Shown: positions 12,665 to 47,168 of the stretch, one piece after another
Position numbering within the stretch: the stretch's first letter is position 1
Layout of the letters: every line of letters begins with the position of its first letter
Origin: an uncultured delta proteobacterium
Lineage (GTDB): Bacteria; Desulfobacterota; Binatia; Bin18
Reading direction: 5' to 3'
Length of the DNA stretch: 64,000 nucleotides
Assembly: GCA_963733195.1 (NCBI GenBank)
Contig: CAVTCR010000065.1
Location: 1-64,000 of the forward strand
Notes under the pieces: generated by a model
The model's database searches: none
Seen by the model: only the letters and a program-made list of their open reading frames with translations
Told to the model about the DNA's origin: nothing
Translations under genes and position numbers: made by a program

Positions 12665-14230
12665 CTATCGGTTTATTTTTTGTACGGTTTCCCGAAATGT
12701 GAGAGCGCTCACGCCGCGTCCCTCACGTGGAGCGTTCTCCCACAGGGAATTCCCTTGGACGATCACCTTATCGAACACGGTATTCTTTTTTGCGGTTGAG
12801 ACATGACCGGCACCGAGAATCCAACAGTCTGCACATAACTCGGCCAATTTTTTGCGAAACGTTTTATAGACTGAGGTCGAGCGAAACTCTTCAATATACG
12901 GGTCTGGGTTCGTGCGTACCATGGGAATCATACTTTCTAAATAGAAAGTGAGATTGATTTGCTCTTCTTTTGAGAGTTGATGCCACTCGTTTTCCGGGAT
13001 GATCAACGCAATGGCGGGGGTCGCGGTTGCTAAGCCCCACGCAATGGGGCGAAGGTGCTGATAGCGAGCCATCAAAGCTGCCATAATGATTTGCCCCTGT
13101 TGGAGCTGTGGGCTGGTCACATCTCGTGATGAAGTCAAGGTTACGGCAGTTGTTTGCTGAGCTGTTACCGGAGATTGGGACGGTGGTGGTGTGCCAGGGG
13201 TTCCGAGTGCTTGAGGTCCCAGCGCAGAGGGGATTTGACGCATCATGGTAAAGAGCAGGAAGCCGAGCAAGACAAACACGAACCCGGCTCCACCCCACGC
13301 GAGCGACTGAAACATTCCCCCGGCTGGGCGATCTGTAGATGGTTGAGGGACTGGGGGAGAAACATTGACCTGCACTGACTGAGGTGCCTTAGCTTGTCCC
13401 TCGTCTGGCAGGGAGCTGGGTTGTCCTCGAAGACGAAAGGTTGTTATCACATCTTGGATATCTTTCGGGGAAACCGTTTTCCGCGACACCTGGTGAATCG
13501 TTCGTAAGGCATTGTCACAAATCAGGTTCACAAGTCGAGGAATGCCTGCGGAATAAGTTGTGATCAACTGCACAACTTCGGGGCTGAACAGATCCTCCCG
13601 CTCATACCCGACCAAGCGTAAGCGATGATAAATGAATTGCTGGACCTCTTCAGGTCTAAGGTACTCAAGCTGACAGCGGAAGTGGACCTTATCTCTGAGA
13701 GAGTCAAACCGTGGGTCACTCAATTTCTTATCTAGCTCAGGATGCTGGCCGACCAGAATAACCTGGAGCAGTTTTCTGCTGACGTGGGGAGAATCAGACA
13801 ACCGAAAGAGGTGTTCGAGAACGTTTTCTTCGATGTCTTGTGCTTCATCAATGACTAGGACAGCTGTGCCACCTGATTTTGAGCGTACAGTGAGAAACTC
13901 ACTGAAGGCTTGTAACTCGCCGACATTCCTTCGCGTGACCCCCATGTCACGACAAGCAAATCTAATCAACTCCTCAAACGTGAGAGTGCTGTAGTAGGAA
14001 AAAGAGAGACGAACGGACGGATCCGTTTGGAGATTATCGATCAGCCGACGGATCAAGGTGGTCTTGCCGGTGCCTACCTCACCAGTCAATACGAGAAAGC
14101 CTTTGCGCTCACGTATGCCTTGCATGAGTTTCGCACATGCCCCTTCGTACACTGGGTTCGAATAGAAAAGGCGTGAAGTGGGCGTCAGGCTAAACGGCTC
14201 TTCTTTAAAGCCAAAATACGTTGTGTACAT
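12665..14230 (-). CDS. ExeA/GspA-family AAA ATPase with TM and unknown C-terminal domain
   Basis: MYTTYFGFKEEPF, GEVGTGKTT, VIDEAQ, GIPRLVNLICDNAL. Confidence 0.88.
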   Translation of the reverse strand: MYTTYFGFKEEPFSLTPTSRLFYSNPVYEGACAKLMQGIRERKGFLVLTGEVGTGKTTLIRRLIDNLQTDPSVRLSFSYYSTLTFEELIRFACRDMGVTRRNVGELQAFSEFLTVRSKSGGTAVLVIDEAQDIEENVLEHLFRLSDSPHVSRKLLQVILVGQHPELDKKLSDPRFDSLRDKVHFRCQLEYLRPEEVQQFIYHRLRLVGYEREDLFSPEVVQLITTYSAGIPRLVNLICDNALRTIHQVSRKTVSPKDIQDVITTFRLRGQPSSLPDEGQAKAPQSVQVNVSPPVPQPSTDRPAGGMFQSLAWGGAGFVFVLLGFLLFTMMRQIPSALGPQALGTPGTPPPSQSPVTAQQTTAVTLTSSRDVTSPQLQQGQIIMAALMARYQHLRPIAWGLATATPAIALIIPENEWHQLSKEEQINLTFYLESMIPMVRTNPDPYIEEFRSTSVYKTFRKKLAELCADCWILGAGHVSTAKKNTVFDKVIVQGNSLWENAPREGRGVSALTFRETVQKINR

Positions 14231-14596
14231 CGCAAGCACCCTAAGCGCATTCTCGGGAAAGCAGCAGTAATTAATTCAGAGGGTGTAGTAAAGACCCAAT
14301 CTTTTTATAGAAGTAGGGCTCTTCTATTATGCCCCGCAAATTTTACGAAAACGAGATCTCTTCCCTCTTGATGGTAAGACAGTTGCCGCTGGACGAAAAG
14401 GGCTTTCCCTAGGGAAGCCACGTGTTCCGAGAAAATTTTCTTCGACAAACGACGCCTCCCCAAGGAGAACCACTCAGGCAGGGCTGTTCTCTTAGAAACA
14501 AAGTGGAGTGTAAGGGGAAGAAAAGAAAGGGGCAAGCCGAAGCTCGTATATTGTTTGAGGGGAAGGGTGATTTCTTCCTTTGGGATGTCTCTGTTC

Positions 14597-25247: not shown

Positions 25248-25465
25248 ATCATAGCTCTGCTTAGCAGGCAACCTTTGCTTTTGTCCACTCTACTATGCCC
25301 GTGCACCCTCGATCACACTCATGGCGGATTGGGTCGGGGTAACCTTCGTCAGCCTGAAGCCCGACGCTTCGAAGAGGACGCGGTACTCAACCTCCGTGCG
25401 CTCACGCCCCCCGTTCATTACCATCATGTTCAGATCGGACAGGACCAAGGCTTGCGCTGCGCTAG

Positions 25466-27154
25466 CCCGGATTATTCATGAAGGATGCGGGACGAAACGG
25501 CTCGCCTCTGCTAAGGTCTGAAGCTGTCAAGACTTTCGGACCAGTCGCAAAGGAGCGAGCCGATGGCAGAGTGTATTGCACAACTCGCGCTGAACTTCCA
25601 TCCGACCCACCTGATCACAGTAGCCTTTGATGCGCCCCATATCTCCAGTGATGGCGGTGCGCTGTTGCTGCGCCAAATGGATGATCGCTTGGGATTGAGC
25701 GAGCGCTTGGCGGCGTTGCTCCCGGATGCGCGCGATCCGCGCAAAGTCAAACATGATCGCCGCGAGCAAATGCGGCAGCGGCTCTACCAGATTGCCTTGG
25801 GGTATCCGGACTGCAACGATGCCGACCGGTTGCGGCAGGACCCGGTCCTCAAGAGTGTGTGTGATCGCTCCCCTCAAGCCGCAGGGCTCTCCTCGCAACC
25901 GACGCTCTCGCGGTTGGAGAACGCGGTGGACATAGGGAGGCTGCGGGCGCTCGTCTGTGAGATTGAGGAACAGTATGTGAGGTCTTTCATCGGAGGCGCC
26001 GGACGTGATCGTCTTGGATATTGACTCCACGGACGATCCCACCCATGGCCAACAGCAACTCTCCTTCTTCCACGGGTATTACGATCAGCACATGTATCAT
26101 CCCTTGGTGATCTTTGATGGAGAGCGGGGCCAGCTGGTGAGTGCGGTGCTGCGTCCGGGCAATGCCCATGCGGCGCGCGGCGCGATGGGCGTCCTCCGCC
26201 GGATTATTCGTCGCCTCAAGCAGCGCTTTCCGCAGTCGCAGATTGTGGTGCGGGGCGATTCGGCGTTTGCGGTCCCGCGCGTGTTGCGGATGCTGGAGGA
26301 ACTGAATCGGGAGCTGGGCGGCATCGCCTACGTCGTGGGGCTCGCCCAGAATGCCGTCCTGCTCCGCTCCGGCGCGGCAGCCTTGAGCGAAGCCCGCCGC
26401 CGCTTTCAGGCCACGAAGCAGACCGTGCAACACTTTGACGCCTTTGCCTATGCGGCGGAGAGCTGGCCGCAGGCCCGGCACGTCGTCATGAAAGCGGAAG
26501 TCAGTGAGCACGGCGCCAATCCCCGTTTTGTGGTGACCTCGCTCCCGGAGTTCGCTCCCGCGCTGCTCTATCACGCGTATTGTGAGCGGGGCCAGTGTGA
26601 GAATTTTATTAAAGACTTCAAAAATGCGCTGCAGGCCGATCGCCTCTCCTGTTCCACGTTTGCGGCCAACTTCTTTCGCTTGCTCGAACACGCGGCGGCC
26701 TATGTGCTCTTCCATGCCCTGCGCACTCAGGTGGCCCCGCTGGCGCCGCAGCTGGGCCGGGCGCAATTCGATACGCTCCGGCTGCAGCTCTTAAAAGTGG
26801 CGGCGATTGTCTCGCAGTCGACGCGCCGGCTGCTCGTCCGGCTCCCGTTCGCTTTTCCTTTGGCACGCGTGTTCCGCGCAACTGGCCACGACACTCGCGG
26901 GGCTGCCCGTCCTGTCCTCCGCGTAATCATTCCCTCCTCACAGAAAGTTTTCCTCTCGTTTCGCTGTCGCCCTTACGTCAGCAGGGAGGAGTCCGTCTCC
27001 TCTTGCCCTCAGGCACCTCAGTTGGCCTGCTCGGCCGCTTGCGTTTCTTGCTCTTTTTTCTCTGTTCTTCACTATTTGTCAGATTGCACGATTCGCATCG
27101 GACTGTTCTGATACAGCTTCCCACCTTCCTCTCTTCGTTCATGAATAATCCGGG
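25466..27154 (+). mobile_element. IS1380-family insertion sequence (1689 bp)
   Basis: 17-bp perfect terminal IR CCCGGATTATTCATGAA; CTAG target duplication at 25462-25465 and 27155-27158. Confidence 0.93.
25563..26935 (+). CDS. IS1380-family transposase (frameshifts; 3' end approximate)
   Basis: SSDGGALLL, SQPTLSRLEN, LDIDST, VRGDSAF, RGQCENFIKDFK. Confidence 0.9.
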
Positions 27155-28067
27155 CTAGAGGATTCCACTCGAACTGGGAGCACCCGTTCGATGAGGAGGA
27201 GCTTCCCCTGCTCGGTCATAGCGCGGTGGCAGTTCTTGAGGATCGTGACCGCGTGGTTGTCATCCCAATCATGAATAACTCGGGAGAGAATATAGGCGTC
27301 TCCTCCACCTGGCACCGAGGTGAGGGCATCGCCTGCCATAACTTCGCAGCGTCCTGTCAAGCCAGCATCGGCGATCCGCTGCTTCGCTCTTTCAGCGACA
27401 TGGGGGAGATCGAAGAGGATTCCCTTCATCTTCGGATTTGCTTGGAGGAGGATAACAAGCAGACTGCCATCTCCGCCCCCTACATCGACCACCTGCTCGA
27501 TCGTTGAGAACGGGTAGCTGGCCAGTACGGCGGCATTGTATACGCCGATAAGGTTCGCCATCGCCTCGTCGAAGCGCTTAGCCTTCTCGGGATGCTGGGC
27601 GCGATGCTGCCATACGCCCATCCCAAAGACATGGTCGAAGGCTATCTCCCCCGTTCGCACGCTGTGCATCAGCTCGCCCCACGCCTGGTAATGGTCTTCC
27701 CCCAATTGCACAGTTGCCAGGCGCGCAGCGAGCCGGGACCATCGCTCCGCAGCGTGGCTGCGAGGGGAGTCAGTGTAAAGCGGCCCCGGTCATCTTCAGC
27801 GAAGACCCCCACACTGGCTAGCGCCCGCAGCACGCGGTAGAGGGAGGGCGCGTGTGTGCCGGTGGCTACGGCCAGCTCAGTAGCAGTCCTGGCTTGGTCC
27901 TGGACGAGGTCGGCGATGCCAAGCTTGGCGGCGATGTACAGGGCCCGTGACACCCAGAAGCCTGCAATCATCTGAAGCATCGCCACGGGCGGCGGAATAT
28001 CATCACTAGTAGTGCGATCGTGTTCACTCATGATCTACCCCTCCTGCAAATGTTGAGCGTGAAGAAC

Positions 28068-28165
28068 GTCTAACGTCCGCCTCGCCGCCGCGGCCCAACC
28101 GTATCCTTTCGCATTCACTCAGAACCGCTCGCGGGCCGCGGTCAGGCTGGAGGCGGGGGTTAGGC
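28068..28165 (-). other. integron attC site (98 bp)
   Basis: minus strand GCCTAAC (contains the gene TAA)-CCCCG-CCTCCAGC..CCGCGGCCC/GGGCCGCGG..GTTAGAC. Confidence 0.85.
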
Positions 28166-28750
28166 GATTGGAGGCAAGACCTCTTGAAAGAGGATGCTGA
28201 GCAACTGGCTCCCTTCGGGGCGGCTCCAATCCTGGGCGAGTTCTGCCATGAGCGTGTTAGTCGCGGTCAATACAACCCCTTCTCGCTCCATGCGCCGTCG
28301 TGACATTTCTTCGGATATTTCATAAGGCGACCCCGAAGCATCCATGACCGCTTGGACTTGATAGCCTTCGCGGCAGGCACTAATGGTCGGGAACACCAAG
28401 CACACATCCGTTGTTACGCCGGCCATGATGAGATTTCTACGGCCAGTCGATTCGACCGCCTGCTTGAAGTGTGGGTCGTTCCAGGCATTGACGATCCCAG
28501 CGCGCTTGACTCTCGCCGCAAACGCCTCAGGAAGAATCTGTTCGAGCTCCGGCATTAAGGGCCCCTGCTGGTTCTGCTCTTGAGAACTGGTGAGAATGAC
28601 AGGAATACCCAGGAGCTTGGCCGTTTTCGCGAGCGCCAGGGTGTTACGTTTGACTACATCCAGCGGGATGTTCTTGATGAGCTTCATCGTACCCAGTTGA
28701 TGATCGATAAGTAAAAGAGCGCTATCAGTTGGGGAAAACGTCCCAATCAT
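28160..28750 (-). CDS. isochorismatase-family hydrolase (YcaC-like)
   Basis: LLLIDHQ, NAW, AGVTTDVC, DASGS. Confidence 0.9.
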   Translation of the reverse strand: MIGTFSPTDSALLLIDHQLGTMKLIKNIPLDVVKRNTLALAKTAKLLGIPVILTSSQEQNQQGPLMPELEQILPEAFAARVKRAGIVNAWNDPHFKQAVESTGRRNLIMAGVTTDVCLVFPTISACREGYQVQAVMDASGSPYEISEEMSRRRMEREGVVLTATNTLMAELAQDWSRPEGSQLLSILFQEVLPPIA

Positions 28751-28868
28751 TTCACTATCCTCCGTTGAATTTGCCGCCTGCTATAAAGTAGGCGGCTAAG
28801 TCCTTGAATTCATTGAATAGCACCTTCCTTCTACTTTCATAGGTGGTGGCGACGTCCCACGTCATGAA

Positions 28869-28959
28869 GGCTAACGCCAAGGATTTAATCCGACCTGCCG
28901 TACCACAGTGAGACCACTCCCCGGTCTACTCGTCCCAGGGCGGATAAATCCTGTTGGAC
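28869..28959 (-). other. atypical attC site (91 bp)
   Basis: minus strand GTCCAAC-AGGATTTATCCG..CGGATTAAATCCT-TGGC-GTTAGCC. Confidence 0.65.
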
Positions 28960-29459
28960 GGAACCGCGGCCCCACAGGCCGTCGACGCTATGGGGATTCT
29001 ATCGAGTCTAGGGAGTCCTGCCAATGGTTGCACGAGCGGTGAAACGGGCAGCGACCAAGCGGAGGAGCAGACGGACTGGCGCAAGAGGCGTGGCAAGAGC
29101 AGGAGTATCGGCTCTGATTGCTCGCGAGAAGAGGGAAGAGCCAGGATGTGAACGCACGGGACCAGACCGCTCGGTGAGGGGAGGCACGAGTAGTGAGGAG
29201 TGCCACAAGGGCAGAGTAGGAACGGCGTGGAGACGGGTCATGGCGGGAGACCTCGCTGGGGAGCCAGGAGGGCGATGATCCGCCAGGAACTCCCGGCACA
29301 GTGGAGGCACCGTGCGGAAACGGCGGACGGAGCGCTCGGGTCCGGCTGAGAGCCGGGCGGCACGCCCCACGGCCGCTCGACTTCTGGCCCACCAGAACCG
29401 GCACCAGAGTCGCCCTCCGCGGCCTTTTTTTCATCGGAGAGGGTGAGGCCTGGCCTCTT

Positions 29460-29481
29460 CACCGGCTGATAGGGGTTAGCG
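29460..29481 (-). other. half attC (R'' end) closing the DUF4258 cassette
   Basis: minus strand TTGCCCGCTAAC matches the cassette start GTTAGTGTGCAA at 10 of 12 positions; no partner arm found. Confidence 0.5.
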
Positions 29482-29493
29482 GGCAACCCATCC

Positions 29494-29709
29494 TTAGACA
29501 TGCACCGGCGTAAGCTGAAACACCCGCGCTAGTTGGCTTGCTTGTGTGAGGTCCCCTCGATGCAACGCTTTCCGTACCGCATCTAGCTTCTGCGCATCGG
29601 CGAGAGACAGAGACGGGGACCACCCTTCTTCCGTTTCGATCAAGGTCACCTCAACTTCGGCGGCATACTGTCCTTCGTGAATCAGTTTGGTGTGGCGTCG
29701 TTTGCTCAT
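29494..29709 (-). CDS. small hypothetical partner of DUF4258 protein (putative antitoxin)
   Basis: ATGA overlap with the DUF4258 gene; 71 aa. Confidence 0.75.
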
Positions 29710-30029
29710 TGTTTTTTCCTCAGCAGATTTTCACTCCAACGGTTCGGATCTGGTCGGTACGCCGTCACCACGACAGCGGGGGTGGTGGTGTTTTTGGCAA
29801 TTCCCCATACCACATGTATCGGCTGGCCTTGCCCATCGTGCTGCAACACCAGCACGCACGGCCCTTTGTGGTAGGTTGGGTAATCTTCAACCACGACGGC
29901 CTTGTCGATACCCGCTACAATGTCATCAATGAAAATATTATCCTCGGCCAACTCGTCATAGCCATGGTCCGAGACGTGCACTTCACGGCGAGCCACCAAC
30001 TCACGAATCTGTTGCAACGTTTGACTCAT
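29706..30029 (-). CDS. DUF4258-domain protein (RelE-like putative toxin)
   Basis: [30 protein letters not shown]. Confidence 0.85.
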
Positions 30030-30107
30030 TGACCCTCGGATCAAGAAGGACAACTCCTCTCAGGAACTCATCGTATCCAGAACCACCGATCAGTTCCAGA
30101 GCTTGCA

Positions 30108-30206
30108 CACTAACGGTCCCAGTCACCGTTTGCCGCCCCATCGTGTCCTTTCAGGTTCAGCAGTCTCCGCACGCGGGCGGCAAAACGGTGCAGGCGCTTG
30201 CTATAT
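30108..30206 (-). other. integron attC site (99 bp; R'' AAC changed to AGC)
   Basis: minus strand ATATAGC-AAGCG-CCTGCACC-GTTTTGCCGCCC..GGGCGGCAAAC-GGTGACT-GGGACC-GTTAGTG. Confidence 0.8.
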
Positions 30207-30292
30207 TTCGTTTGACGTAGTGCCATTGGCAAACGACAATCGAGCGTGCGCATCCTACGCCATTTCCAGCACCCTGAATACGCGCGGCACAC

Positions 30293-31086
30293 TTATTTCG
30301 CTGTCAGAATCCACGTAACGATTAGGTCAAGGTCAGTATTCGGTATGTCGGAGTGCGCAGGCATGGGAATCATGCCCCACACTCCCGCGCTGCCATTTTT
30401 CACCTGCATGACAAGGTACGTGGCTGCGTCCGTCTGGGTGCGATATTTTGCTGCAACCTCTTTGAACGCCGGCCCAATGCCTTTCGTTTCCGCGGTGTGA
30501 CACGCCACGCAGCCATACTTCGCCAACATCCCTTCCACACCCGCCGCAGGCAATGCCGGCTGCAGCGAAACCGGAGGGGCGGAGCGTTGGGAGTCGGCGT
30601 CGCGTTGGTCGCAAGATCTTCATACGAAGTGGTCGGCACCACATTCGGCACGGGCTGTGACTTGAGATAGGTCACGATCATCCATATGCCTTCACTCCCC
30701 AACACCCCGCCGTACGCGGGCATGCCCTTCGCTCGGCCATAGAAGATCGAGTGGAAGATTTCTGCGTCCGCGCCGCCATAGTGCCAACGCCCATCGACTA
30801 GACTCGGCCCGATCGACCCTAGCGCACCACCGCCATGGCACCCGTCGCAGTTCATAGCGGAGAACAGTCTCGCCCCTGTTTGCGCGCTCTGCAAATCGTC
30901 CTTGTAGGGATTCTCGAGCGTGACGCCGGCCGCATTCACCCCACCAGCGGAAACGTTGGCTTCGGAGCGGATCGCCACAGGTCCATCGCTCGAATCCCCA
31001 GCCTCCGCGTCGCACTTGATACAGGGAAACGTGGCAACGCATGCTGCCAGGACGTAGGCTACGGCCCAGGCATTTCGCAGTCTCAT
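30293..31086 (-). CDS. periplasmic cytochrome c, probably two haem domains (XoxG/cL-like + c551-like), frameshift near 30570
   Basis: signal peptide; CDGCH..GPSL..W.YGG..IF.SI..G...GMP, then CVACH..GPAFKEVA..G.WG.IPMP. Confidence 0.8.
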
Positions 31087-31100
31087 ATGTCGTCTCCCCT

Positions 31101-32888
31101 CTACAACGCAAAGATCCACACCATCCCGCCCTGGCTCGTATGGCGACCGAGGTCTTTCATGAAATCCGCCGGTGGCCGCACATCCGTCGGATCATCGGCA
31201 CGCACATCGCCCGCAACCAGGAACCAGTCGCCGCCGATGCCCGCGTACACCGCCACATACTGTTTGCCATCTGGGCCGGTGTAGGTAATCGGATTGCCTA
31301 CGACTCCAGAGCCGACTTTGAATTTTGCCAGGAGGGCGCCAGTCTTCGCATTGACTGACTTAAACCAACCGTCGAGCGTGCCATAAAATGCCACATCCCC
31401 GGCGGTAACGAGAGCGCCGCTCCAGGCGGGATACGGCTCCTTCACCTCCCACATCTTTTTCCCGTTGGTTGCATCCCAAGCCATAAAAGCACCGAGATGG
31501 CCGCCGGGACCCGCGTGGTACGGTGAATTCACGCCTATGAATGGAGTCCCGCGGATATAGGTGGCGCGCGTAGCCGCGAAGTCCATGCAGAAGTTGTTCG
31601 TTGAGGTGTAGAAGAGTCCGGTGCGTGGCGAATAGGCGCCTGGCGAGGCTGGACTTACCCCACCCTCAAGACTGGGGCAAATACCCTTGATATTGCCCTT
31701 CGAGGCGCCGGTTTGTTTGCTGGGGTTCAGTACTGGTCGCCCAGTCGTGAGGTCAATCGAGGTCGCCCACGTTACCGTCACAAAAGGTGGCGCAGAGAGG
31801 ACCTCGCCTGTCGCACGGTCCAGGGTGTATTGGAAGCCATTCTTGTTGAACGACACCAGCGTTTTGCGTGGGCGTCCGCCGATCTTGAGATCAGCCAGAA
31901 TCATGGGGGCGTTTGCATCGTAGTCCCAATTGTCGTGCGGTGTAAATTGATACGCCCACACCAGCGCGCCATCTGATGGCCGTCGTGCGAGTACACTTGA
32001 GGCCCATTTGTTATCACCCGGACGTTGCTCAGGATTGTAAGGCGCAGGATTTCCGGTGCCGTAGTACAGCAGGTCGAGTTCCGGATCGTAGGATATTCCT
32101 CCCCACACCGGAGCACCGCCGGTCTTCCAGGCCTCGGCTGGCCAGCTCGACTTCCCAAGCTCAACTCCCTTATCGTAGAACGGCTTAAAGGTGTTGGCAT
32201 TGATGCGCATGTCAGCGTCGGGACCGAGATTGTGCGCGGTCCAGAGAACCTTGCCGGTCTTCACGTCGAGTCCTTTGACCCAGCCGTAGATGCCAAACTC
32301 GCCGCCCGAGGCGCCGACAATCACGCGGTCCTTGACCACCACGGGCGCCATCGGCGTCGTTTCACCCTGGCCGACATCGGCAATCGTGGTGCTCCACACT
32401 TCGCGTCCTGTGAACGCATCGACTGCCACGGTGTGTCCGTCCAGAAGATTGTAAATAATTTTGCCATCGGCGAAGAACGCCCCGCGATTGATCACATCAC
32501 AGCACGCGATACCAATGGCGTTGGGGCTCACGGCCGGACGGTACTTCCACTTCAGCGGGTAGCCTTCCTTTGTGAGGTCGAAGGCGTAAAGCACGTTCGG
32601 ATACGGCGTGACCACGTACATGGTGTTATGGACCACCAGTGGCTGCCCTTCGTGTCCAGCCAGCACTCCCGTGGAAAACGTCCACACCGGGCGAAGCCCT
32701 CTGGCATTCGCGGCAGTGATCTGTGCCAACCCGCTATAGCGCGTAGAAGCGTAGTCTTTGGCGGGCATCGTCCACTGGCCGTCTTCTGCTCCCTGCGTCG
32801 CCCCACACGCGAAGACAAGCATCATGTGCATCGCAGCCGTCCGGGCGAAAACCCAGGTCAGTCTGTGGGCCAATTGAACGTATTTCAT
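31101..32888 (-). CDS. PQQ-dependent methanol/ethanol-family dehydrogenase, XoxF-like (lanthanide-type D-Y-D)
   Basis: WTFSTGV..GHEG.PL, vicinal CCD..NRG, GGEFG, GTGNPAP, RPGDNKW, PHDNWDYD. Confidence 0.88.
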   Translation of the reverse strand: MKYVQLAHRLTWVFARTAAMHMMLVFACGATQGAEDGQWTMPAKDYASTRYSGLAQITAANARGLRPVWTFSTGVLAGHEGQPLVVHNTMYVVTPYPNVLYAFDLTKEGYPLKWKYRPAVSPNAIGIACCDVINRGAFFADGKIIYNLLDGHTVAVDAFTGREVWSTTIADVGQGETTPMAPVVVKDRVIVGASGGEFGIYGWVKGLDVKTGKVLWTAHNLGPDADMRINANTFKPFYDKGVELGKSSWPAEAWKTGGAPVWGGISYDPELDLLYYGTGNPAPYNPEQRPGDNKWASSVLARRPSDGALVWAYQFTPHDNWDYDANAPMILADLKIGGRPRKTLVSFNKNGFQYTLDRATGEVLSAPPFVTVTWATSIDLTTGRPVLNPSKQTGASKGNIKGICPSLEGGVSPASPGAYSPRTGLFYTSTNNFCMDFAATRATYIRGTPFIGVNSPYHAGPGGHLGAFMAWDATNGKKMWEVKEPYPAWSGALVTAGDVAFYGTLDGWFKSVNAKTGALLAKFKVGSGVVGNPITYTGPDGKQYVAVYAGIGGDWFLVAGDVRADDPTDVRPPADFMKDLGRHTSQGGMVWIFAL

Positions 32889-33119
32889 GTTTTCCTCATG
32901 TGCGTTCGGGTAGATGATCGGCGCCTTCTCATGCAACGTGTTGACATATATTTCCTCTGCAACGCACAACGTCACTACTGCACTTCGTGTGATATGTTTG
33001 AGCCCTCACTGTCCCTGAGTCGTGCCTTTCCCTGCCTTGTGGGACTCGATGAACCGAGTAACCTCGACCAGGTTGTTGCGAAACATAGTGAACAACGTGG
33101 AGGAGGGCATGTTTATGAA

Positions 33120-33215
33120 ATATAACGCTAAAGCTCAGCAGCCGGGCCGCCCGACTGGCGCAATACCTCGGAAGGGCGTAATGGCGGCCCGGTCTGCTGT
33201 AGCGGCTTGTTCGGC
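33120..33215 (-). other. integron attC site (96 bp)
   Basis: minus strand GCCGAAC-AAGCC-GCTACAGC-AGACCGGGCCGCC..GGCGGCCCGGCT-GCTGAGC-TTTAGC-GTTATAT. Confidence 0.88.
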
Positions 33216-33282
33216 TTGAATATTTACGATTTCTTCCCTTTTCCGTCCCTTTTCCGCTCTGTCCCCTGTTCCGCTCTCGCAG

Positions 33283-34263
33283 CTACTTGAGCCGCGGGTC
33301 GTCATCCCATAGGACCTGGTAGCCTCCGCCATCATCGACAAATAGAATTGCCCCGCGACCGCCTACCCTTGCATGGGTCACGCCTTCGACCTTCATCCTT
33401 TTGTGGAACCGCACATTCTCGAAGTGACGGACAACCCCTTGAGCATTGCCGTCCCACGAATAGAGTGCGAACGGGGCTTTCGATGCACTGGTCGAATTGC
33501 CGGCGACGATCAGCCATACACCGCGCGAAGGGTCGAACCCGATCGTTCGAATGCCCTGCTCTCCCCGGTCGTCCTTGATTGCAAGGGAAACTGGCGGCAG
33601 CATCTCGAAGTTGCTCAGATGCCACGGACCGTCCACCCGTTTGAGCCGGACCCGCAGGATGAGCGGTTTCCCCTCGATGACGGGTGTGCGCACTCCCAAC
33701 AGCAGCACCTCCTCGGTCGGGCTCCACCCCAGTCCTTCGACGTTCAGCCCACCGTCATCGGGCAGGTACCTCGGAGACTTCCCCAGTTCCGGAGCGTTTT
33801 CAACAATCCATTCTCGAAATGCCGAAAGGACCTCCGCTTCGAGCCGGTCATCCTCTCCGAATGAAATCCTCAAGAGGCAGTTTCTGGCCGTGGATTCTTT
33901 GCCTCGCTTGCTCTTCTTTTTGTGACGTCTTTTTCTCTGCTTCAAGCTGAGCGAGGGGATCACGACAATGAGGCTGCCGCCTTCCGTACGCACATGCGTC
34001 ATTCCTTCAAGATCGTCCACGGTTCCCGGTTCAATCCCTCTGATCGGACGCCTGATGAGCGGGCAGGCCATTTTTCCATCAGCCGCGAGCCGAAGCTCAA
34101 AGAGTGCATCGCCGATGTTGTTATCGCAAAAGAGAAACTTGGAATCGTCAATAGCGACGATTTCGGAAGCGTTGTAGGGCTCAGGGCCGGGTCGCTCGCC
34201 AAAGGCGATCGGCTTGATGCTTGGGTTCTTCTCAGGCTTTTCATCCCTTTGTTTTCGCAACAC
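33283..34263 (-). CDS. DUF3616-like (beta-propeller) protein
   Basis: DLEG, GGLNVEGL, LLGVRTP, GIR, KVEGV motifs. Confidence 0.7.
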   Translation of the reverse strand: MLRKQRDEKPEKNPSIKPIAFGERPGPEPYNASEIVAIDDSKFLFCDNNIGDALFELRLAADGKMACPLIRRPIRGIEPGTVDDLEGMTHVRTEGGSLIVVIPSLSLKQRKRRHKKKSKRGKESTARNCLLRISFGEDDRLEAEVLSAFREWIVENAPELGKSPRYLPDDGGLNVEGLGWSPTEEVLLLGVRTPVIEGKPLILRVRLKRVDGPWHLSNFEMLPPVSLAIKDDRGEQGIRTIGFDPSRGVWLIVAGNSTSASKAPFALYSWDGNAQGVVRHFENVRFHKRMKVEGVTHARVGGRGAILFVDDGGGYQVLWDDDPRLK

Positions 34264-34340
34264 GAGTATACTCCTCTTGTTCCACCCTGCGATTTGCCTG
34301 CTTGCCTCTTGATCGCCTCAAATTCACGAGACTCTCCGGC

Positions 34341-34380
34341 GCCGAACGCATGTTAATTGGCCCAAAGAAAATTGGCAAAC
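34341..34380 (-). other. candidate attI site (start of cassette array)
   Basis: minus strand GCCAATTAACATGC-GTTCGGC; GTTCGGC is the exact complement of R'' GCCGAAC at 33209-33215; no attC palindrome; AT-rich context. Confidence 0.55.
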
Positions 34381-34487
34381 CTTGTTGTTTCTGCAAAATA
34401 AGCTACCCACGAAATTTTCTGAATCATCTGCCATTCCTTCGTCATTTACAAGAGTTACTGGGCGTATTCTCGAAATACTCTCTAGGT

Positions 34488-34514
34488 GTTATTTTGCACA
34501 ACCTGCAAAATAAC
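34488..34514. promoter_or_regulatory. perfect 11-bp inverted repeat, candidate operator
   Basis: GTTATTTTGCA-CAACC-TGCAAAATAAC; extra TGCAAAATAA half-site at 34392-34401. Confidence 0.4.
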
Positions 34515-34599
34515 CCGGACATGGCCGATGCTGTTATCGTGCTCAACAGACTCACTCAGCCTTTCACAACGATCCGCTGGACTGTGCATCCCTTGTCCT

Positions 34600-34668
34600 C
34601 TTCGGTCATCCTTCGACTTCGTTTGCGCGTAGCTTGTCCTAAGCTTAGTCGAAGGGCTTAGGACGAGC
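34600..34668. repeat. palindromic repeat, same family as the 4242-4396 internal hairpins
   Basis: CCTTCGACT..GTCCTAAGC..AGTCGAAGGGCTTAGGAC. Confidence 0.55.
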
Positions 34669-34773
34669 AGAGAAAAATTCGCGTCCCCCGAGCTTTTGGT
34701 AATGCACCTCGCCGTTGTCTTGCCTGGGCGTGCATGTTAGGGTTCTCGCACTTTTTTCGGGGAGTACTCCACT

Positions 34774-41892: not shown

Positions 41893-42039
41893 GCGGCGAC
41901 AGCCTGAGGAGCATGACGCCACGATTTACGTGTGCACGGAAATAGTCAGGTACCCTCGATCAACGCCGTCTCGCCGGCAGCGCTCTTTCAGTAAGGCAAC
42001 AAAGAGATCGTCTATTTCCGTGTCGTTCCGGTGCGCGTG

Positions 42040-43134
42040 CGTGACAGCGGATGAGCTTGCTCTTCGGCCGTGTTGTTGCTGGTCAACGCATCCGACATCA
42101 CCAGCGGTTTGCTCCCGCTGCGGCTCCCGTTGGGCTAAGAGCGCGTCCAGATTCTCCCCCGCATGCTGCCGCCCGGTATAATAGAAACAGATCCGCCGCT
42201 CTCCGACTTGCACGATCAACGCCGTCGTATACATCCCCGTCCGGGCCGGCTCGGCGCCCCGAGGCTGTCGCTTGCGCGCCGGCCTGCTGGTTCTCCTCGA
42301 TCAAGCGTCAAGACCCGCCCGGGCGTGTCATCTTGAAAGATCACCTCGCCTTGCGCGGCCAATCGCTCCAAGTACTTGAAGATCGGATCGCCACAATCTC
42401 CCACGAGCTCCGCTTGATCCCATTGCGTGGCATCGGGCACGGGCACACCCACCAACGCTTGAAACCCTTCGAGCCGATACCACGGCAGCCCCAGATAATA
42501 GCGCGCCAGGGCGAACACCGCCCGCGCCCGGGCACTGTACTTCTCTGCACCCGGTGCGGCGGGCACGGACGCGGTGAAGATTTGCCCACAGGCGGAGCAC
42601 CGCAACTTCTCCAGCTCATAGCGAAGGGCTGAGAGGAACGCATTGCCGTCGAGCCGCATCTCCACGCCCGGCGATAACTGATATAACCGCCCCCGCCCAC
42701 ACGCTGGACACCGCTCGCCCACCGCTAATTCCTCATGTCGACACGCGACCGTTTGCGCCCCCCGATAGACCTCCGCGCCGTGCCGCCCATGCCCTGCTGG
42801 ACGTTGCTTCCCCACGGTCGACTCCGGCGTAGCACGTCTCCTCCCCTCCCTGTGTGAGGCTTCCGTCTGCCCCCCGTGCCGCCCGTGCTCCCCCACTCGG
42901 GGTCCCGCCCGCCGGCGGGGGCTCGCGCTTCTTGGGCTTCTCACCAAACACCAGGGCCTTTAAACGCTTGAGACTCAGCTTTGCTTCCCGCAGGGCAAAC
43001 AGCAGCCAGAAGTAAAACGTGAGCACCTTCACCAGGACCCGGCGATCCTCCGCGCTCAACGCATTGCGCTCAATCCGCTCAATGAGCGCTTCGCCTTCTT
43101 CGCGACTGAGTGTGACTTCTTCCGGCCGCTTCAT
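42040..43134 (-). pseudogene. IS66-family transposase (TnpC-like), frameshifted and C-terminally truncated
   Basis: LKALVFGEK, CPACG..RCSACG zinc motif, LPWYRLE, FQDDTP, TGRQHAGENL, DAL. Confidence 0.8.
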
Positions 43135-43768
43135 CGCACCATTCCTCCGATGCCATTTACCAACCCTGCAGCAGGGGCGTGGCCTTCGACCGCGGCAGTT
43201 ATAGCAGGAAGCGCGGGCGCTCGTGAAGGACGGGACTCCTGCTGTCGGTGTCAAGCGCTCAGCTTGCGTAGTCAAACTGCCGCTCATGCACGATGGAAAA
43301 TGTCAAGCAGCGCCACCGGAAAGACACCCCCAACGGGCTTTCCCCAACGGACCGTCCCGAGGCCCTGGCGCCCGGAAACCCCTGACGCTCTTCCCTCACC
43401 CATCCTGCGCCGCCTGTCCAGGCCGCGCCACGCCTTGCTGCGAGGCGATGCGGCAAACAGCTGCTGCTGGCGGGCGATGTTGGCATGCCCCCAGGGTGTT
43501 TTCGGGGGCTGTGCTCCGGAAGGGGCGGCGCTCAAATAGCGTTTGAACCTCCTATCCTCACAGAAGGCCTACGATGGCGAGCGTTTTCCCAGTTTGACGC
43601 GTATCACCATGTACTCTGGACGACCGCGACGTCTGTGGGCCAGGCCGGCGCCTCTCCATCACAATGTGCTCGTGGCCTGGTGACTCGGCACACACCCCCG
43701 TCAACAGCAAAGCGCGGGCGAACCGCAGAGGGTAGCCCGCGCTTGCTGCAACGGTATTGGTAACGAAC

Positions 43769-46014
<2,246 letters not shown>

Positions 46015-46206
46015 GTCGATCCTTCTCCTTTCTGGCTGATTCGCTGCAACTAATGGCAGATAGCGAGGCCTATCTTGCCGCTGATTTGCGCCGCCCGGGG
46101 CCGCATCGAGGTCCAGCGGCACGGCACTCGCGCATATGCTATACTAGACGCTAACGTTCTATGAACATGAACTGACGCATACAACCGACAGTAAAGAAAG
46201 TCAATT

Positions 46207-46524
46207 CTAGCGGCTCTGGTGCCGAGGTCGGGTGCACTCCTGGTGCTGCGGCCGTCCTGGCTCCGTTGCCGCCCGCCCCCCACCGGCCGCAGTCCCGCCT
46301 GACGTCGGCGGCTCGCGTTTCTTGGGCTTCTCGCCAAACACCAACGTCCTCAGTCGTTTCAGACTTAGCTTCGCCTCGCGTAACGCAAAGAGCAACCAGA
46401 AATAAAACGTCAGCACCTTCACGAGCACCCGCCGATCCTCGGCGGTCAAGGCATCCTTTTCGAGACGCTCGATCAACGCTTCGCCGTCCTCGCGGCTGAG
46501 GGTCACTTCTTCAGGACGTTTCAT
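46207..46524 (-). pseudogene. second IS66-family transposase N-terminal remnant
   Basis: MKRPEEVTLSRE...VFGEKPKKREPP nearly identical to the copy starting at 43134. Confidence 0.85.
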
Positions 46525-47168
46525 CGCACCCTCTCCTCCTCCGATTCCGTTCGCCATATCCCAGCAAACGGCTTCCGGCCTGAGACTGCGAAGCTTATAG
46601 CAGGAGGGACGCACACTAGTGAAGGAGGGGGCAAGTGCCCTCAGCCTCAAGTATTCGGCATAAGCCGTCGAGTTGGGACTGCGCCTCAATCGGGAATGTC
46701 AAGCAGGCGTCACCGGAAGGACACTATTCTCCAAGCATGGTATACCGATCTGAACTGCCCGTTCCTCTCTCAGGGTACTCGTCAAGAGTTAGCAATGACG
46801 GCTCGGCCAGAGACAGACAAACCCGGGATGCGACACAAAAGGTTTGGGAATTACGTTGAACTTGACACCTGCCTCCCAACCGGCGGCTTTGTGGGGGCAA
46901 TACGCTATTGCTGAGGCAGGGAACAGGGCCACAAACCCCGCAAGAGGAGTGGCATACCAGAGAGCTTGTGGGTTCTACAAGGCGGCCCGAAAACGCGGAG
47001 TAAGGCATACAAAAAAGCGTTAGGTCTTGTCAGACATGTCCCCAACTTGCGTCCACGAAGGGGGGTGTCCAGACGCATTCAGCGAGTAGAAGGGCGGCAC
47101 GGAGAAGCAGCGGAGGGCAGAAGAGAGGAGGGAGTGATTAGAGGAATACGCTATCCGCTAGGACGTGT

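Follow-up and report, generated by a model that had tools for sequence, protein, structure and literature searches.

Cassette structure and boundaries

The window analysed here is the whole 64,000-nt stretch G000:C65:1-64000, where G000 stands for the source genome (an uncultured Binatia bacterium, assembly GCA_963733195.1; 6.95 Mb in 87 contigs) and C65 for its contig CAVTCR010000065.1. On the minus strand, from 33125 to 30114, lies a unit of 3,012 nt which carries a gene for a pyrroloquinoline quinone (PQQ) alcohol dehydrogenase of the XoxF type and a gene for a c-type cytochrome behind a non-coding leader, with an integron attC site on either side. This unit is very probably (I would put it at roughly 0.85) an integron gene cassette in the true sense, with a two-gene module for periplasmic electron transfer as its cargo, and it has moved, as judged by comparison with other arrays. 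With its limits set by the crossover between G and TT of the R' box, the cassette runs from the TT of the upstream R' (the upstream attC ends in GTTATAT, 33126->33120) to the G of its own R' (its own attC ends in GTTAGTG, 30114->30108). The coordinates 30114..33125 and all features described there by an initial annotation were confirmed at their exact positions.

Both strands of the window were scanned, with filters off, using a covariance model (R1) built from attC sites on other contigs of the genome; it is tuned to the main attC family of the genome and its E-values are rough. Three full-length matches were obtained, all on the minus strand (Table 1), and all other matches in the window had E-values of at least 0.04, two of them being plus-strand echoes of 28068-28167 and 30108-30208. 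The two sites that flank the cassette, whose failure against attC models had been named as grounds for dismissing it, scored 64.8 and 19.9 bits. The cassette's own attC has its R'' box (ATATAGC) at 30206->30200, carries the extra base on the same arm as the attC family does, and forms a hairpin with a z-score of -2.75; a near-identical attC with the R'' box ATATAAC lies on another contig of the genome (C79:25899-25998). The upstream attC is of a divergent sequence type with no blastn relative elsewhere in the genome. It folds as a long bulged DNA hairpin (-27.5 kcal/mol, z -3.5; none of 200 shuffles reached this stability), and two attC-like sites directly downstream of the intact integron integrase (IntI) of the genome score like it (24.2 and 22.6 bits).

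The start of the cassette pairs with its own R'' region, as had been noticed in the initial annotation. The word GTTATATTTC (minus 33126->33117) is complementary to GAAATATAGC (minus 30209->30200) at 9 of 10 positions, with a chance of ~3e-5 at fixed positions, and in three sister copies the second word ends in AAC, which gives 10 of 10 positions complementary to the cassette start. Complementarity between the word after the crossover, TTATATTTC, and the own R'' region is what would be expected if the unit once circularised. The change of R'' from AAC to AGC is real as well when set against the three sister copies (on C79 and on two contigs described below, L079 and L160), all of which have AAC (ATATAAC) at this position.

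No internal attC was detected when one was sought in 30209-33119 with R1 and filters off, the best match (8.9 bits, E 9.4) being on the wrong strand. The 5' region of about 230 bp of the initial annotation corresponds to a non-coding leader of 237 nt, and since this leader has no assigned role, the 3.0-kb interval might be read as fused cassettes with an eroded internal attC, for example an ORF-less leader joined to a xoxF-cytochrome cassette (ORF, open reading frame). Such a fusion appears very unlikely: there is no internal attC signal, leader and coding region are conserved as one, the 5' junction being the same in three contexts, and only 14 nt separate xoxF from the cytochrome gene, which starts at 31086. 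The proposal of a single cassette stands, with attC sites on both sides, none inside, no space for one between the genes, and a leader conserved as a unit in four copies. A plus-strand ORF that spans the leader (33022-33219) was considered as a real gene and rejected, as the equivalent frame of the L160 copy has a stop (by eye).

The attC sites of the cluster start at 28167, 30208 and 33217 on the minus strand, at spacings of 2,041 and 3,009 nt, and a search of the genome with the integron integrase model TIGR02249 gave no match on C65. Clusters of two or more attC sites that lie less than 4 kb from each other on one strand, without an integron integrase in the vicinity, are defined as CALINs (attC-site clusters that have no integron integrase) in the available text of PMC4889954. 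The rest of the window holds argG, argH, dapF, dapA, dapB and nuo-like genes, ordinary chromosomal genes which identify the contig as chromosomal, and the attC cluster adjoins argG. The cassette sits in a chromosomal CALIN of three attC sites.

Table 1. The cassette, its attC sites and neighbouring features on C65, in gene direction from the preceding cassette (R1, covariance model; nhmmer, profile search).
Feature	Position	Strand	Evidence
Gene of the preceding cassette, DUF3616-like, 326 aa	33283..34263	-	Pfam PF12275 5.9e-05
Upstream attC, belonging to the preceding DUF3616 cassette	33120..33217	-	R1 19.9 bits, E 0.0077, full length
Conserved 5' leader, 237 nt, non-coding	32889..33125	-	Aligns across C65, L160, L159 and L079
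XoxF-type PQQ alcohol/methanol dehydrogenase, 595 aa, N-terminal signal-like segment	31101..32888	-	Pfam PQQ (PF01011) 2.4e-59
Dihaem cytochrome c part 1: lipobox-like LAAC, cL/XoxG-like haem domain (CDGCH), linker	30577..31086	-	Cytochrome_CBB3 1.2e-14
Dihaem cytochrome c part 2, other frame: c551/c552-like haem domain (CVACH)	30293..30580	-	Cytochrom_C 1.7e-07
Cassette's own attC	30108..30208	-	R1 64.8 bits, E 2e-15; nhmmer E 2.4e-15 (30107-30210)
Following cassette: DUF4258 protein and small overlapping partner ORF	29494..30053	-	Pfam DUF4258 1.2e-18
Isochorismatase-family gene, just upstream of the third attC	28750..28160	-	Pfam Isochorismatase
Third attC of the cluster	28068..28167	-	R1 70.7 bits, E 4.5e-17; nhmmer E 1.9e-15 (28066-28168)
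O-methyltransferase, split	28031..27139	-	Pfam/ORF list
Insertion sequence (IS) element, DDE_Tnp_1_4 transposase in two frames	25455..27159	+	Pfam; low-coordinate edge of the higher-GC island

The attC family and the integrase of the genome

A scan for hairpins of the form AAC...GTT returned 205 candidates in the window, which is too permissive for a test, and was used solely for choosing eight seed hairpins from contigs C19, C24, C32, C9 and C1; C65 was always kept out of the models. The first round of nhmmer found 68 sites genome-wide, including C65 28065-28167 (E 2.6e-15) and 30110-30191 (E 4.4e-6), and the third round found 71. The 68 family attCs (E < 1e-5) are spread over 29 contigs. Forty members from contigs other than C65 were aligned with MAFFT and the hairpin was drawn by hand, since RNAalifold gave just 10 pairs; R1 was built from these 40 sites and has 101 positions and 29 pairs. 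Across the 40 members the hand-drawn hairpin pairs 79.7% of the cells, compared with 32-41% after shifting the partners by 1-3 columns, and compensatory double-sided cells number 74 against 38.9 +/- 4.6 in shuffles, with none of 500 shuffles reaching 74.

Family members share a GnCTAAC...GTTAGnC frame of ~100 nt, have one additional base on the 5' arm of the gene-direction strand, and keep one orientation within each array. An intact integron integrase is encoded at C33:20009-20953 (TIGR02249, 477 bits against a cut-off of 265, no internal stops) with two attC-like sites 1.2-1.8 kb downstream, while integrase fragments occur on many other contigs. A search for exact repeats beside the intact C33 integrase found no attC array, its attCs having diverged too far to share exact seeds. 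On seven contigs (C33, C32, C1, C41, C66, C62 and C77), attCs lie 1-7 kb downstream of IntI-like sequence and on the same strand.

One could hold that the repeats are of the REP/MITE kind (repetitive extragenic palindromes or miniature inverted-repeat transposable elements), unrelated to integrons, and that xoxF resides in a genomic island delivered by IS elements; the repeats do occur on 29 contigs, often far from integrase matches, IS elements flank the island, and C65 has no IntI. This explanation is extremely improbable, however, in view of the AAC/GTT-type core boxes, the bulged base on one arm, the length of ~100 nt and the single orientation per array, the seven contigs on which the repeats follow IntI-like sequence on the same strand, the boundaries at the G and TT of R' in every context compared, and the pairing of the first cassette bases with their own R''. 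The palindromic family are attC sites and not a generic palindromic repeat.

G000 is unusually rich in integron arrays, most of which are separated from the intact integrase. A regular palindromic repeat array at G000:C51:19742-20710 (ACCCAACC...GGTTGGGT, ~72-76 nt spacing) gave false positives of the hairpin scan and looks like a CRISPR array.

Dehydrogenase and cytochrome cargo

The dehydrogenase scores 597 bits against TIGR03075 (cut-off 480), and its best match among solved structures is the XoxF of strain SolV (PDB 4MAE; E 1e-182, 612 bits, over residues 35-595). Other XoxF entries of the PDB reached 541 (6OC5), 510 (7O6Z) and 502 bits (6DAM), MxaF-type entries 395-484 bits, and ethanol dehydrogenases at most 346 bits. 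Aligned segments (query/4MAE) were ACCDVINRG/ACCDVVNRG, GGEFG/GGEFG, GTGNP/GTSNP and HDNWDYD/WDSWDYD, in which the Cys-Cys pair, the Glu, the Asn and the extra Asp (D-x-D) are what I take to be the catalytic and ligand positions of XoxF. The initial annotation had assigned the enzyme to the lanthanide type from its D-x-D motif; here the motif reads PHDNWDYD and lines up with WDSWDYD in 4MAE, a Ce-dependent XoxF, and the assignment holds at the level of sequence. Taken together, these scores and residues support a dehydrogenase of the XoxF (lanthanide) type, nearer to XoxF than to MxaF or ExaA.

According to the available text of PMC10875860, the XoxF3 clade occurs in Acidobacteria, Gemmatimonadetes, Rokubacteria, Proteobacteria and Verrucomicrobia, and biochemical data on it are lacking. 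From the taxa of its relatives and this taxon range, used in place of reference clade sequences, the cassette enzyme is probably an XoxF3.

A c-type cytochrome follows, as first annotated, although it is a two-domain (dihaem) protein whose gene is split, in this assembly, by a 1-nt deletion near 30580. Part 1 corresponds to residues 1-181 of the intact protein of L079, at 83% identity. The N-terminal domain shows a weak cL/MoxG likeness (TIGR03872, 49 bits against a cut-off of 147.8; PDB cL entries at ~1e-7) and, having missed the TIGR03872 cut-off, was not filed as a curated cL/XoxG (MoxG) member, while the C-terminal domain matches c-552/c-551 entries of the PDB at E 1e-24 with the intact L079 protein as query. 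The cytochrome occupies the gene position of XoxG and probably works like it. Among 73 related loci with enough downstream sequence, a cL-like cytochrome gene follows xoxF in 72, so the cassette captured a pre-existing operon core; the fused two-domain form was found in 18 of these loci, plus L104 as two pieces, and the other 7 of the 80 related loci (described below) end too soon to judge.

The genome had been proposed for a check of PQQ synthesis genes, and these are encoded at C62:266.9-270.1 kb: pqqC (328 bits) and pqqE (518 bits) both score above their cut-offs, and pqqB is present in two pieces in the same region.

Copies in other arrays

The same 5' junction, G followed by TTATATTTCAT, was found behind three different upstream attCs, namely those of C65, of the contigs L091 and L160, and of L159. 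The junction of GTT with ATATTTCAT is identical behind all three, and the edge of the cassette falls between the G and the TT of R' in every context compared. At the opposite end, C79:25905-26363 matches C65 30112-30572 at 97% up to the GTT of R', beyond which the sequences diverge; the C79 match reaches within 8 nt of the end of this 26,371-nt contig.

In G024 (L076/L091), a genome of the same family and a different genus, xoxF is 94% identical over residues 1-370, after which the contig ends. The same leader is present, with the junction of GTT and ATATTTCATAAACATGCC, behind a quite different attC (51 bits) in an array of three attCs. L160, a longer metagenome contig, holds the G024 array together with the whole cassette (87% nt identity to C65 30175-33137) and attCs on both sides, its own attC having the R'' box ATATAAC and a loop insertion of ~90 nt. 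L159 is a 1.6-kb metagenome contig with the same junction behind a third attC sequence.

A further copy was found on L079, a contig of a groundwater metagenome-assembled genome (MAG) titled 'Acidobacteria bacterium', with 87% nt identity for the cassette and 92% aa identity for XoxF. The attC belonging to this copy is a short one of 63 nt (23.9 bits, R'' ATATAAC), and a HigB-like/helix-turn-helix gene pair follows it. In L079 the first ~30 nt of the cassette are replaced; next to them are a reverse-transcriptase gene and fragments of IS110- and Mutator-type transposases. Group II introns with attC sites as their target are known; on L079 a fragment of an RVT_1 reverse transcriptase (2063-2656, minus) adjoins an attC (1363-1464) in the array with the cassette.

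The cassette is hence placed behind at least three different attCs and before at least three different downstream sequences, which supports its movement between arrays and genomes, the bearers of the other copies being soil and groundwater bacteria. The initial proposal of mobilisation by integron recombination is borne out by the junction behind three attCs, the 97% match of the 3' end on C79 and the intact integrase in the genome. It had also been asked whether close homologues are flanked by attCs: L160 has them on both sides, L091 has them upstream of its cut-off copy and L079 has its own short attC, whereas R1 found none for two others, G016 and L117.

Distribution and phylogeny

Forty relatives, 24 of them of the same family, were searched with the XoxF protein. 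Close copies of the cassette XoxF were present in 3 of the 40 (G016 with 90%, G024 with 94% over a partial sequence, and G018 with 68% identity), and 21 of the 24 same-family genomes carry a XoxF at 52-56% identity to the cassette enzyme, which is the orthologue of a second gene of G000 on contig C43. The C43 copy is therefore vertically inherited. It belongs to a core cluster xoxF-xoxJ-xoxG, with a TIGR03871 match of 312 bits at C43:14534-15253 and the cytochrome at 14097-14351. G002, of the same genus and 100% complete, has only the 53% paralogue, and G001 (84% complete) gave no XoxF match at E <= 1e-100. The concern that homologues of the cassette gene might be syntenic core genes does not apply, as it is another paralogue, 53-56% identical, that is the syntenic core gene. 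At G000:C43:21232-23247, 4-6 kb from the core cluster, a pair of strong plus-strand attCs (82 and 86 bits) was noted; the cluster itself (C43:14097-17294, minus) does not lie between attCs.

Scanning a single genome of each species gave 80 loci with identities of 68-94%. Most are titled Gemmatimonadales, Steroidobacteraceae, Gammaproteobacteria or Acidobacteria, with single loci from Acidimicrobiia, Tepidisphaeraceae and Chthoniobacterales, titles that are unreliable as taxonomy, given that two of the closest, titled 'uncultured Enterobacteriaceae', fall in the family of G000. In a tree of 89 rows (quick method, no rows dropped), the cassette XoxF falls in a clade of five rows with a support of 99 in the Shimodaira-Hasegawa-like approximate likelihood ratio test (SH-aLRT), together with L091, L079, L083 (which is G016) and L117, a locus from Acidimicrobiia. 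G016 groups weakly (88) with L079 inside this clade. The clade has L092/L093 as its sister and is nested in a larger group made up mainly of Gemmatimonadales and Steroidobacteraceae, with the family-core XoxF as the outgroup. R1 attCs (E < 0.01) were found in 2 of the 80 loci, L079 and L091, a count to be read with the caveat that R1 may miss attCs of other phyla.

Points against a mobile cassette and condition of the C65 copy

Several observations weigh against the reading of this unit as a mobile, working cassette. The upstream attC reaches only 19.9 bits with R1, a model trained on the main attC family of the genome, and there is no integrase on C65, so any mobilisation must act in trans. 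The core consensus of attC sites is RYYYAAC for R'' and GTTRRRY for R', from which the R'' box ATATAGC departs, and when 30108-30208 is folded to minimum energy its R boxes stay unpaired. The cytochrome frame is broken in this assembly, and a scan of the leader and the 3' spacer found neither a sigma-70-like promoter nor a terminator. Nor is the size of the cassette unique to it, as 6 of 34 consecutive spacings between family attCs are ~3 kb or more (2,972-5,000 nt). Finally, close versions of the gene pair stand outside recognised attCs. In G016 the pair (90% aa identity) has a MOSC-domain gene 5-17 nt upstream and a convergent amidohydrolase gene on its other side; its homology to C65 starts 3 nt ahead of the start codon and goes no further than the stop codon, and no R1 attC was found within 20 kb of it. 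L117, an Acidimicrobiia MAG (87% aa), likewise has no R1 attCs, with DinB-family and PBP1-type genes on the flanks of the pair and homology to C65 that extends 24 nt upstream and ~52 nt downstream. The module is therefore not always cassette-borne.

The condition of the C65 copy itself raises the question of whether it is a fossil, once mobile and now fixed and decaying, with the AGC of R'' blocking IntI and a real frameshift in the cytochrome gene. I regard this as rather doubtful. It would agree with the AGC seen here against the AAC of C79, L079 and L160, with the unpaired R boxes, with a cluster that has no integrase and IS remnants on its flanks, and with the deletion of 1 nt at ~30580 that breaks a frame found as an intact single dihaem ORF in three relatives (257 aa in G016, 275 aa in L079 and 270 aa in L117). 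This missing base is located beside a CCCC run, however, and frames are split likewise in other genes of G000 (pqqB at C62:269206-270121, the O-methyltransferase and the IS transposases), which fits assembly indel errors, real decay also being possible. Contig C79 stops at the position corresponding to the frameshift, pointing to a problem of the assembly at this site, and the deletion may be an assembly error. Moreover, xoxF is intact with every checked active-site position present, and several other family attCs are also without AAC, in that 4 of 40 and 6 of 40 have no standard pair at its two A positions.

No public run contains more than 0.24 of the sampled words of the stretch, and comparison was made through contigs of relatives at 90-95% identity. 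One contig each of the public samples X3 and X4 has an extra base at 30571 or 30579, in partial agreement with an assembly error in C65, and pieces from X2 and X3 cover some of the attC plus the 3' spacer, as well as a portion of the leader. The C65 copy may be impaired by its split cytochrome and by the AGC in place of AAC in R''.

Proposed mechanism

The host integrase and pqqB, pqqC and pqqE are encoded in the genome, the cassette is bounded by attCs, and its first bases pair with its own R''. On the mobile-cassette reading, IntI would recombine the folded bottom strands of the flanking attCs to give a circle of 3.0 kb, whose rebuilt R' (GTTATAT) would pair with R'' (ATATAAC in the sister copies), and the circle would reinsert at an attI or attC site. 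Expression could come from the conserved 237-nt leader or from read-through out of the upstream cassette.

The XoxF-type protein would be exported and would take up host-made PQQ and a lanthanide ion, the latter via the extra Asp of D-Y-D, and the enzyme is predicted to oxidise methanol or another small alcohol. Electrons would then pass to the cL/XoxG-like haem of a probably lipid-anchored dihaem cytochrome, on to the fused c551-like haem and to a terminal oxidase of the host. Through this cytochrome fusion, the cassette could bring its own adaptor to a generic respiratory chain, without xoxJ. A more far-reaching proposal, which I put forward as tentative, is that a self-sufficient rare-earth-dependent alcohol/methanol module (an XoxF3-like enzyme plus a membrane-anchored dihaem cytochrome) is exchanged as a working cassette among soil and groundwater genera, and that the non-cassette alleles may mark the birth or death of cassettes.

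Genomic surroundings

The cassette-bearing block (25455-34707) has 58.3% G+C compared with 52-53% in its flanks and 53.9% in the genome. The IS element at its low-coordinate edge has copies on C45, C81, C48 and C35, and its split transposase frames lie at 25563-27111. In the following cassette, the DUF4258 ORF and its overlapping partner are arranged like a toxin-antitoxin pair. A repeat of 475 nt at 28871-29344 has copies on C15 (94%), C47, C48, C18, C77, C66 and C68, several of them near integrase fragments. An attI remnant was considered for this repeat and rejected, as the best copy (C15) continues an ORF resembling the C-terminal part of an IS91-type transposase. Probably this 475-nt repeat is the end of an IS that took the place of the attC in the toxin-antitoxin-like cassette.

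The interval from the DUF3616 gene to argG contains two repeats of ~65 nt. One (34341-34407) has copies on C59 and C56, each 1-3 kb from attC sites, and the other (34602-34668) has copies on C81, C6, C78, C26, C9 and C52. A second island of high G+C (42000-46700, 63-65%) contains an IS66-type transposase fragment, a gene for a 581-aa protein with a peroxidase domain (43769-45514, minus) and a weak attC-like match (45662-45722; 15.2 bits, E 0.16).

An empty insertion site was sought in relatives. Homology to G002, G024 and G016 begins at 34708, just before argG; near argG of these three genomes no R1 attC was found and the upstream DNA is unrelated to the window, so that no clean before/after site was obtained. 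An Rfam search found no family in the window.

Comparison with known systems

Integron cassettes mostly consist of one short gene whose function is unknown. An integron whose IntI points in the same direction as its cassettes is called 'inverted', and in G000 IntI, where seen, points the same way as the cassettes. The cassette described here is new cargo for a known kind of mobile element, unusually large and with two genes. At 3.0 kb it exceeds the ~2 kb that the available text of PMC4889954 (Cury et al. 2016) quotes for the largest known cassettes. It resembles the cassettes of sedentary integrons and CALINs described there in being attC-bounded, in the single orientation of the array, in its toxin-antitoxin-like and unknown-function neighbours and in the location of the integrase elsewhere in the genome, and differs from usual CALIN cassettes in that its two genes form a functional pair and are preceded by a conserved leader of 237 nt.

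Compared with the SolV XoxF (Methylacidiphilum fumariolicum, PDB 4MAE/6FKW), the Cys-Cys pair, GGEFG, the Asn of GTGNP and D-Y-D are common to both enzymes, while the cassette enzyme belongs to a different clade with relatives in Gemmatimonadales, Steroidobacteraceae and Acidobacteria. Like canonical xoxF-xoxJ-xoxG clusters, including that on C43, the cassette has a PQQ dehydrogenase gene followed by a gene for a dedicated class I c-type cytochrome; unlike them it has no xoxJ, its cytochrome is a fusion of cL-like and c551-like domains, and its XoxF is just 53% identical to that of C43.

A PQQ methanol/ethanol dehydrogenase on strain-specific, horizontally acquired DNA is also found in Alteromonas australica H17, where, as far as the available text of PMC4119200 describes it, the island is integrated at a tRNA-Leu and carries its own pqqABCDEF, whereas the C65 cassette is attC-bounded and relies on host pqq genes. 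The initial annotation was not aware of any description of such a cassette, and a search of the open full-text literature, outside which lie subscription journals and cassette databases, gave no report of a XoxF, a methanol dehydrogenase or a PQQ enzyme carried by an integron cassette; integrons are described in Methylococcus genomes, with no XoxF cassette mentioned in the available text of PMC8527097.

Implications

The cassette joins integron biology to rare-earth-dependent methylotrophy, with a clear and testable cargo that comprises what appears to be a complete enzyme and electron-acceptor pair of lanthanide-type alcohol oxidation. It indicates that integrons can carry a whole small respiratory module between arrays, and it offers a small natural construct for the biochemistry of the XoxF3 clade. 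The gene pair exists inside and outside cassettes in versions that share 85-90% nt identity, which provides material on cassette formation, and, if the non-cassette alleles do mark the birth or death of a cassette, the acquisition of attC sites by cassettes could be examined on a concrete pair of alleles (G016/L117 versus the cassette). The cassette also suggests one possible route by which XoxF3-type genes came to be scattered across soil phyla, and the exchange proposed above, if true, would mean that integrons spread lanthanide-dependent C1 and alcohol metabolism.

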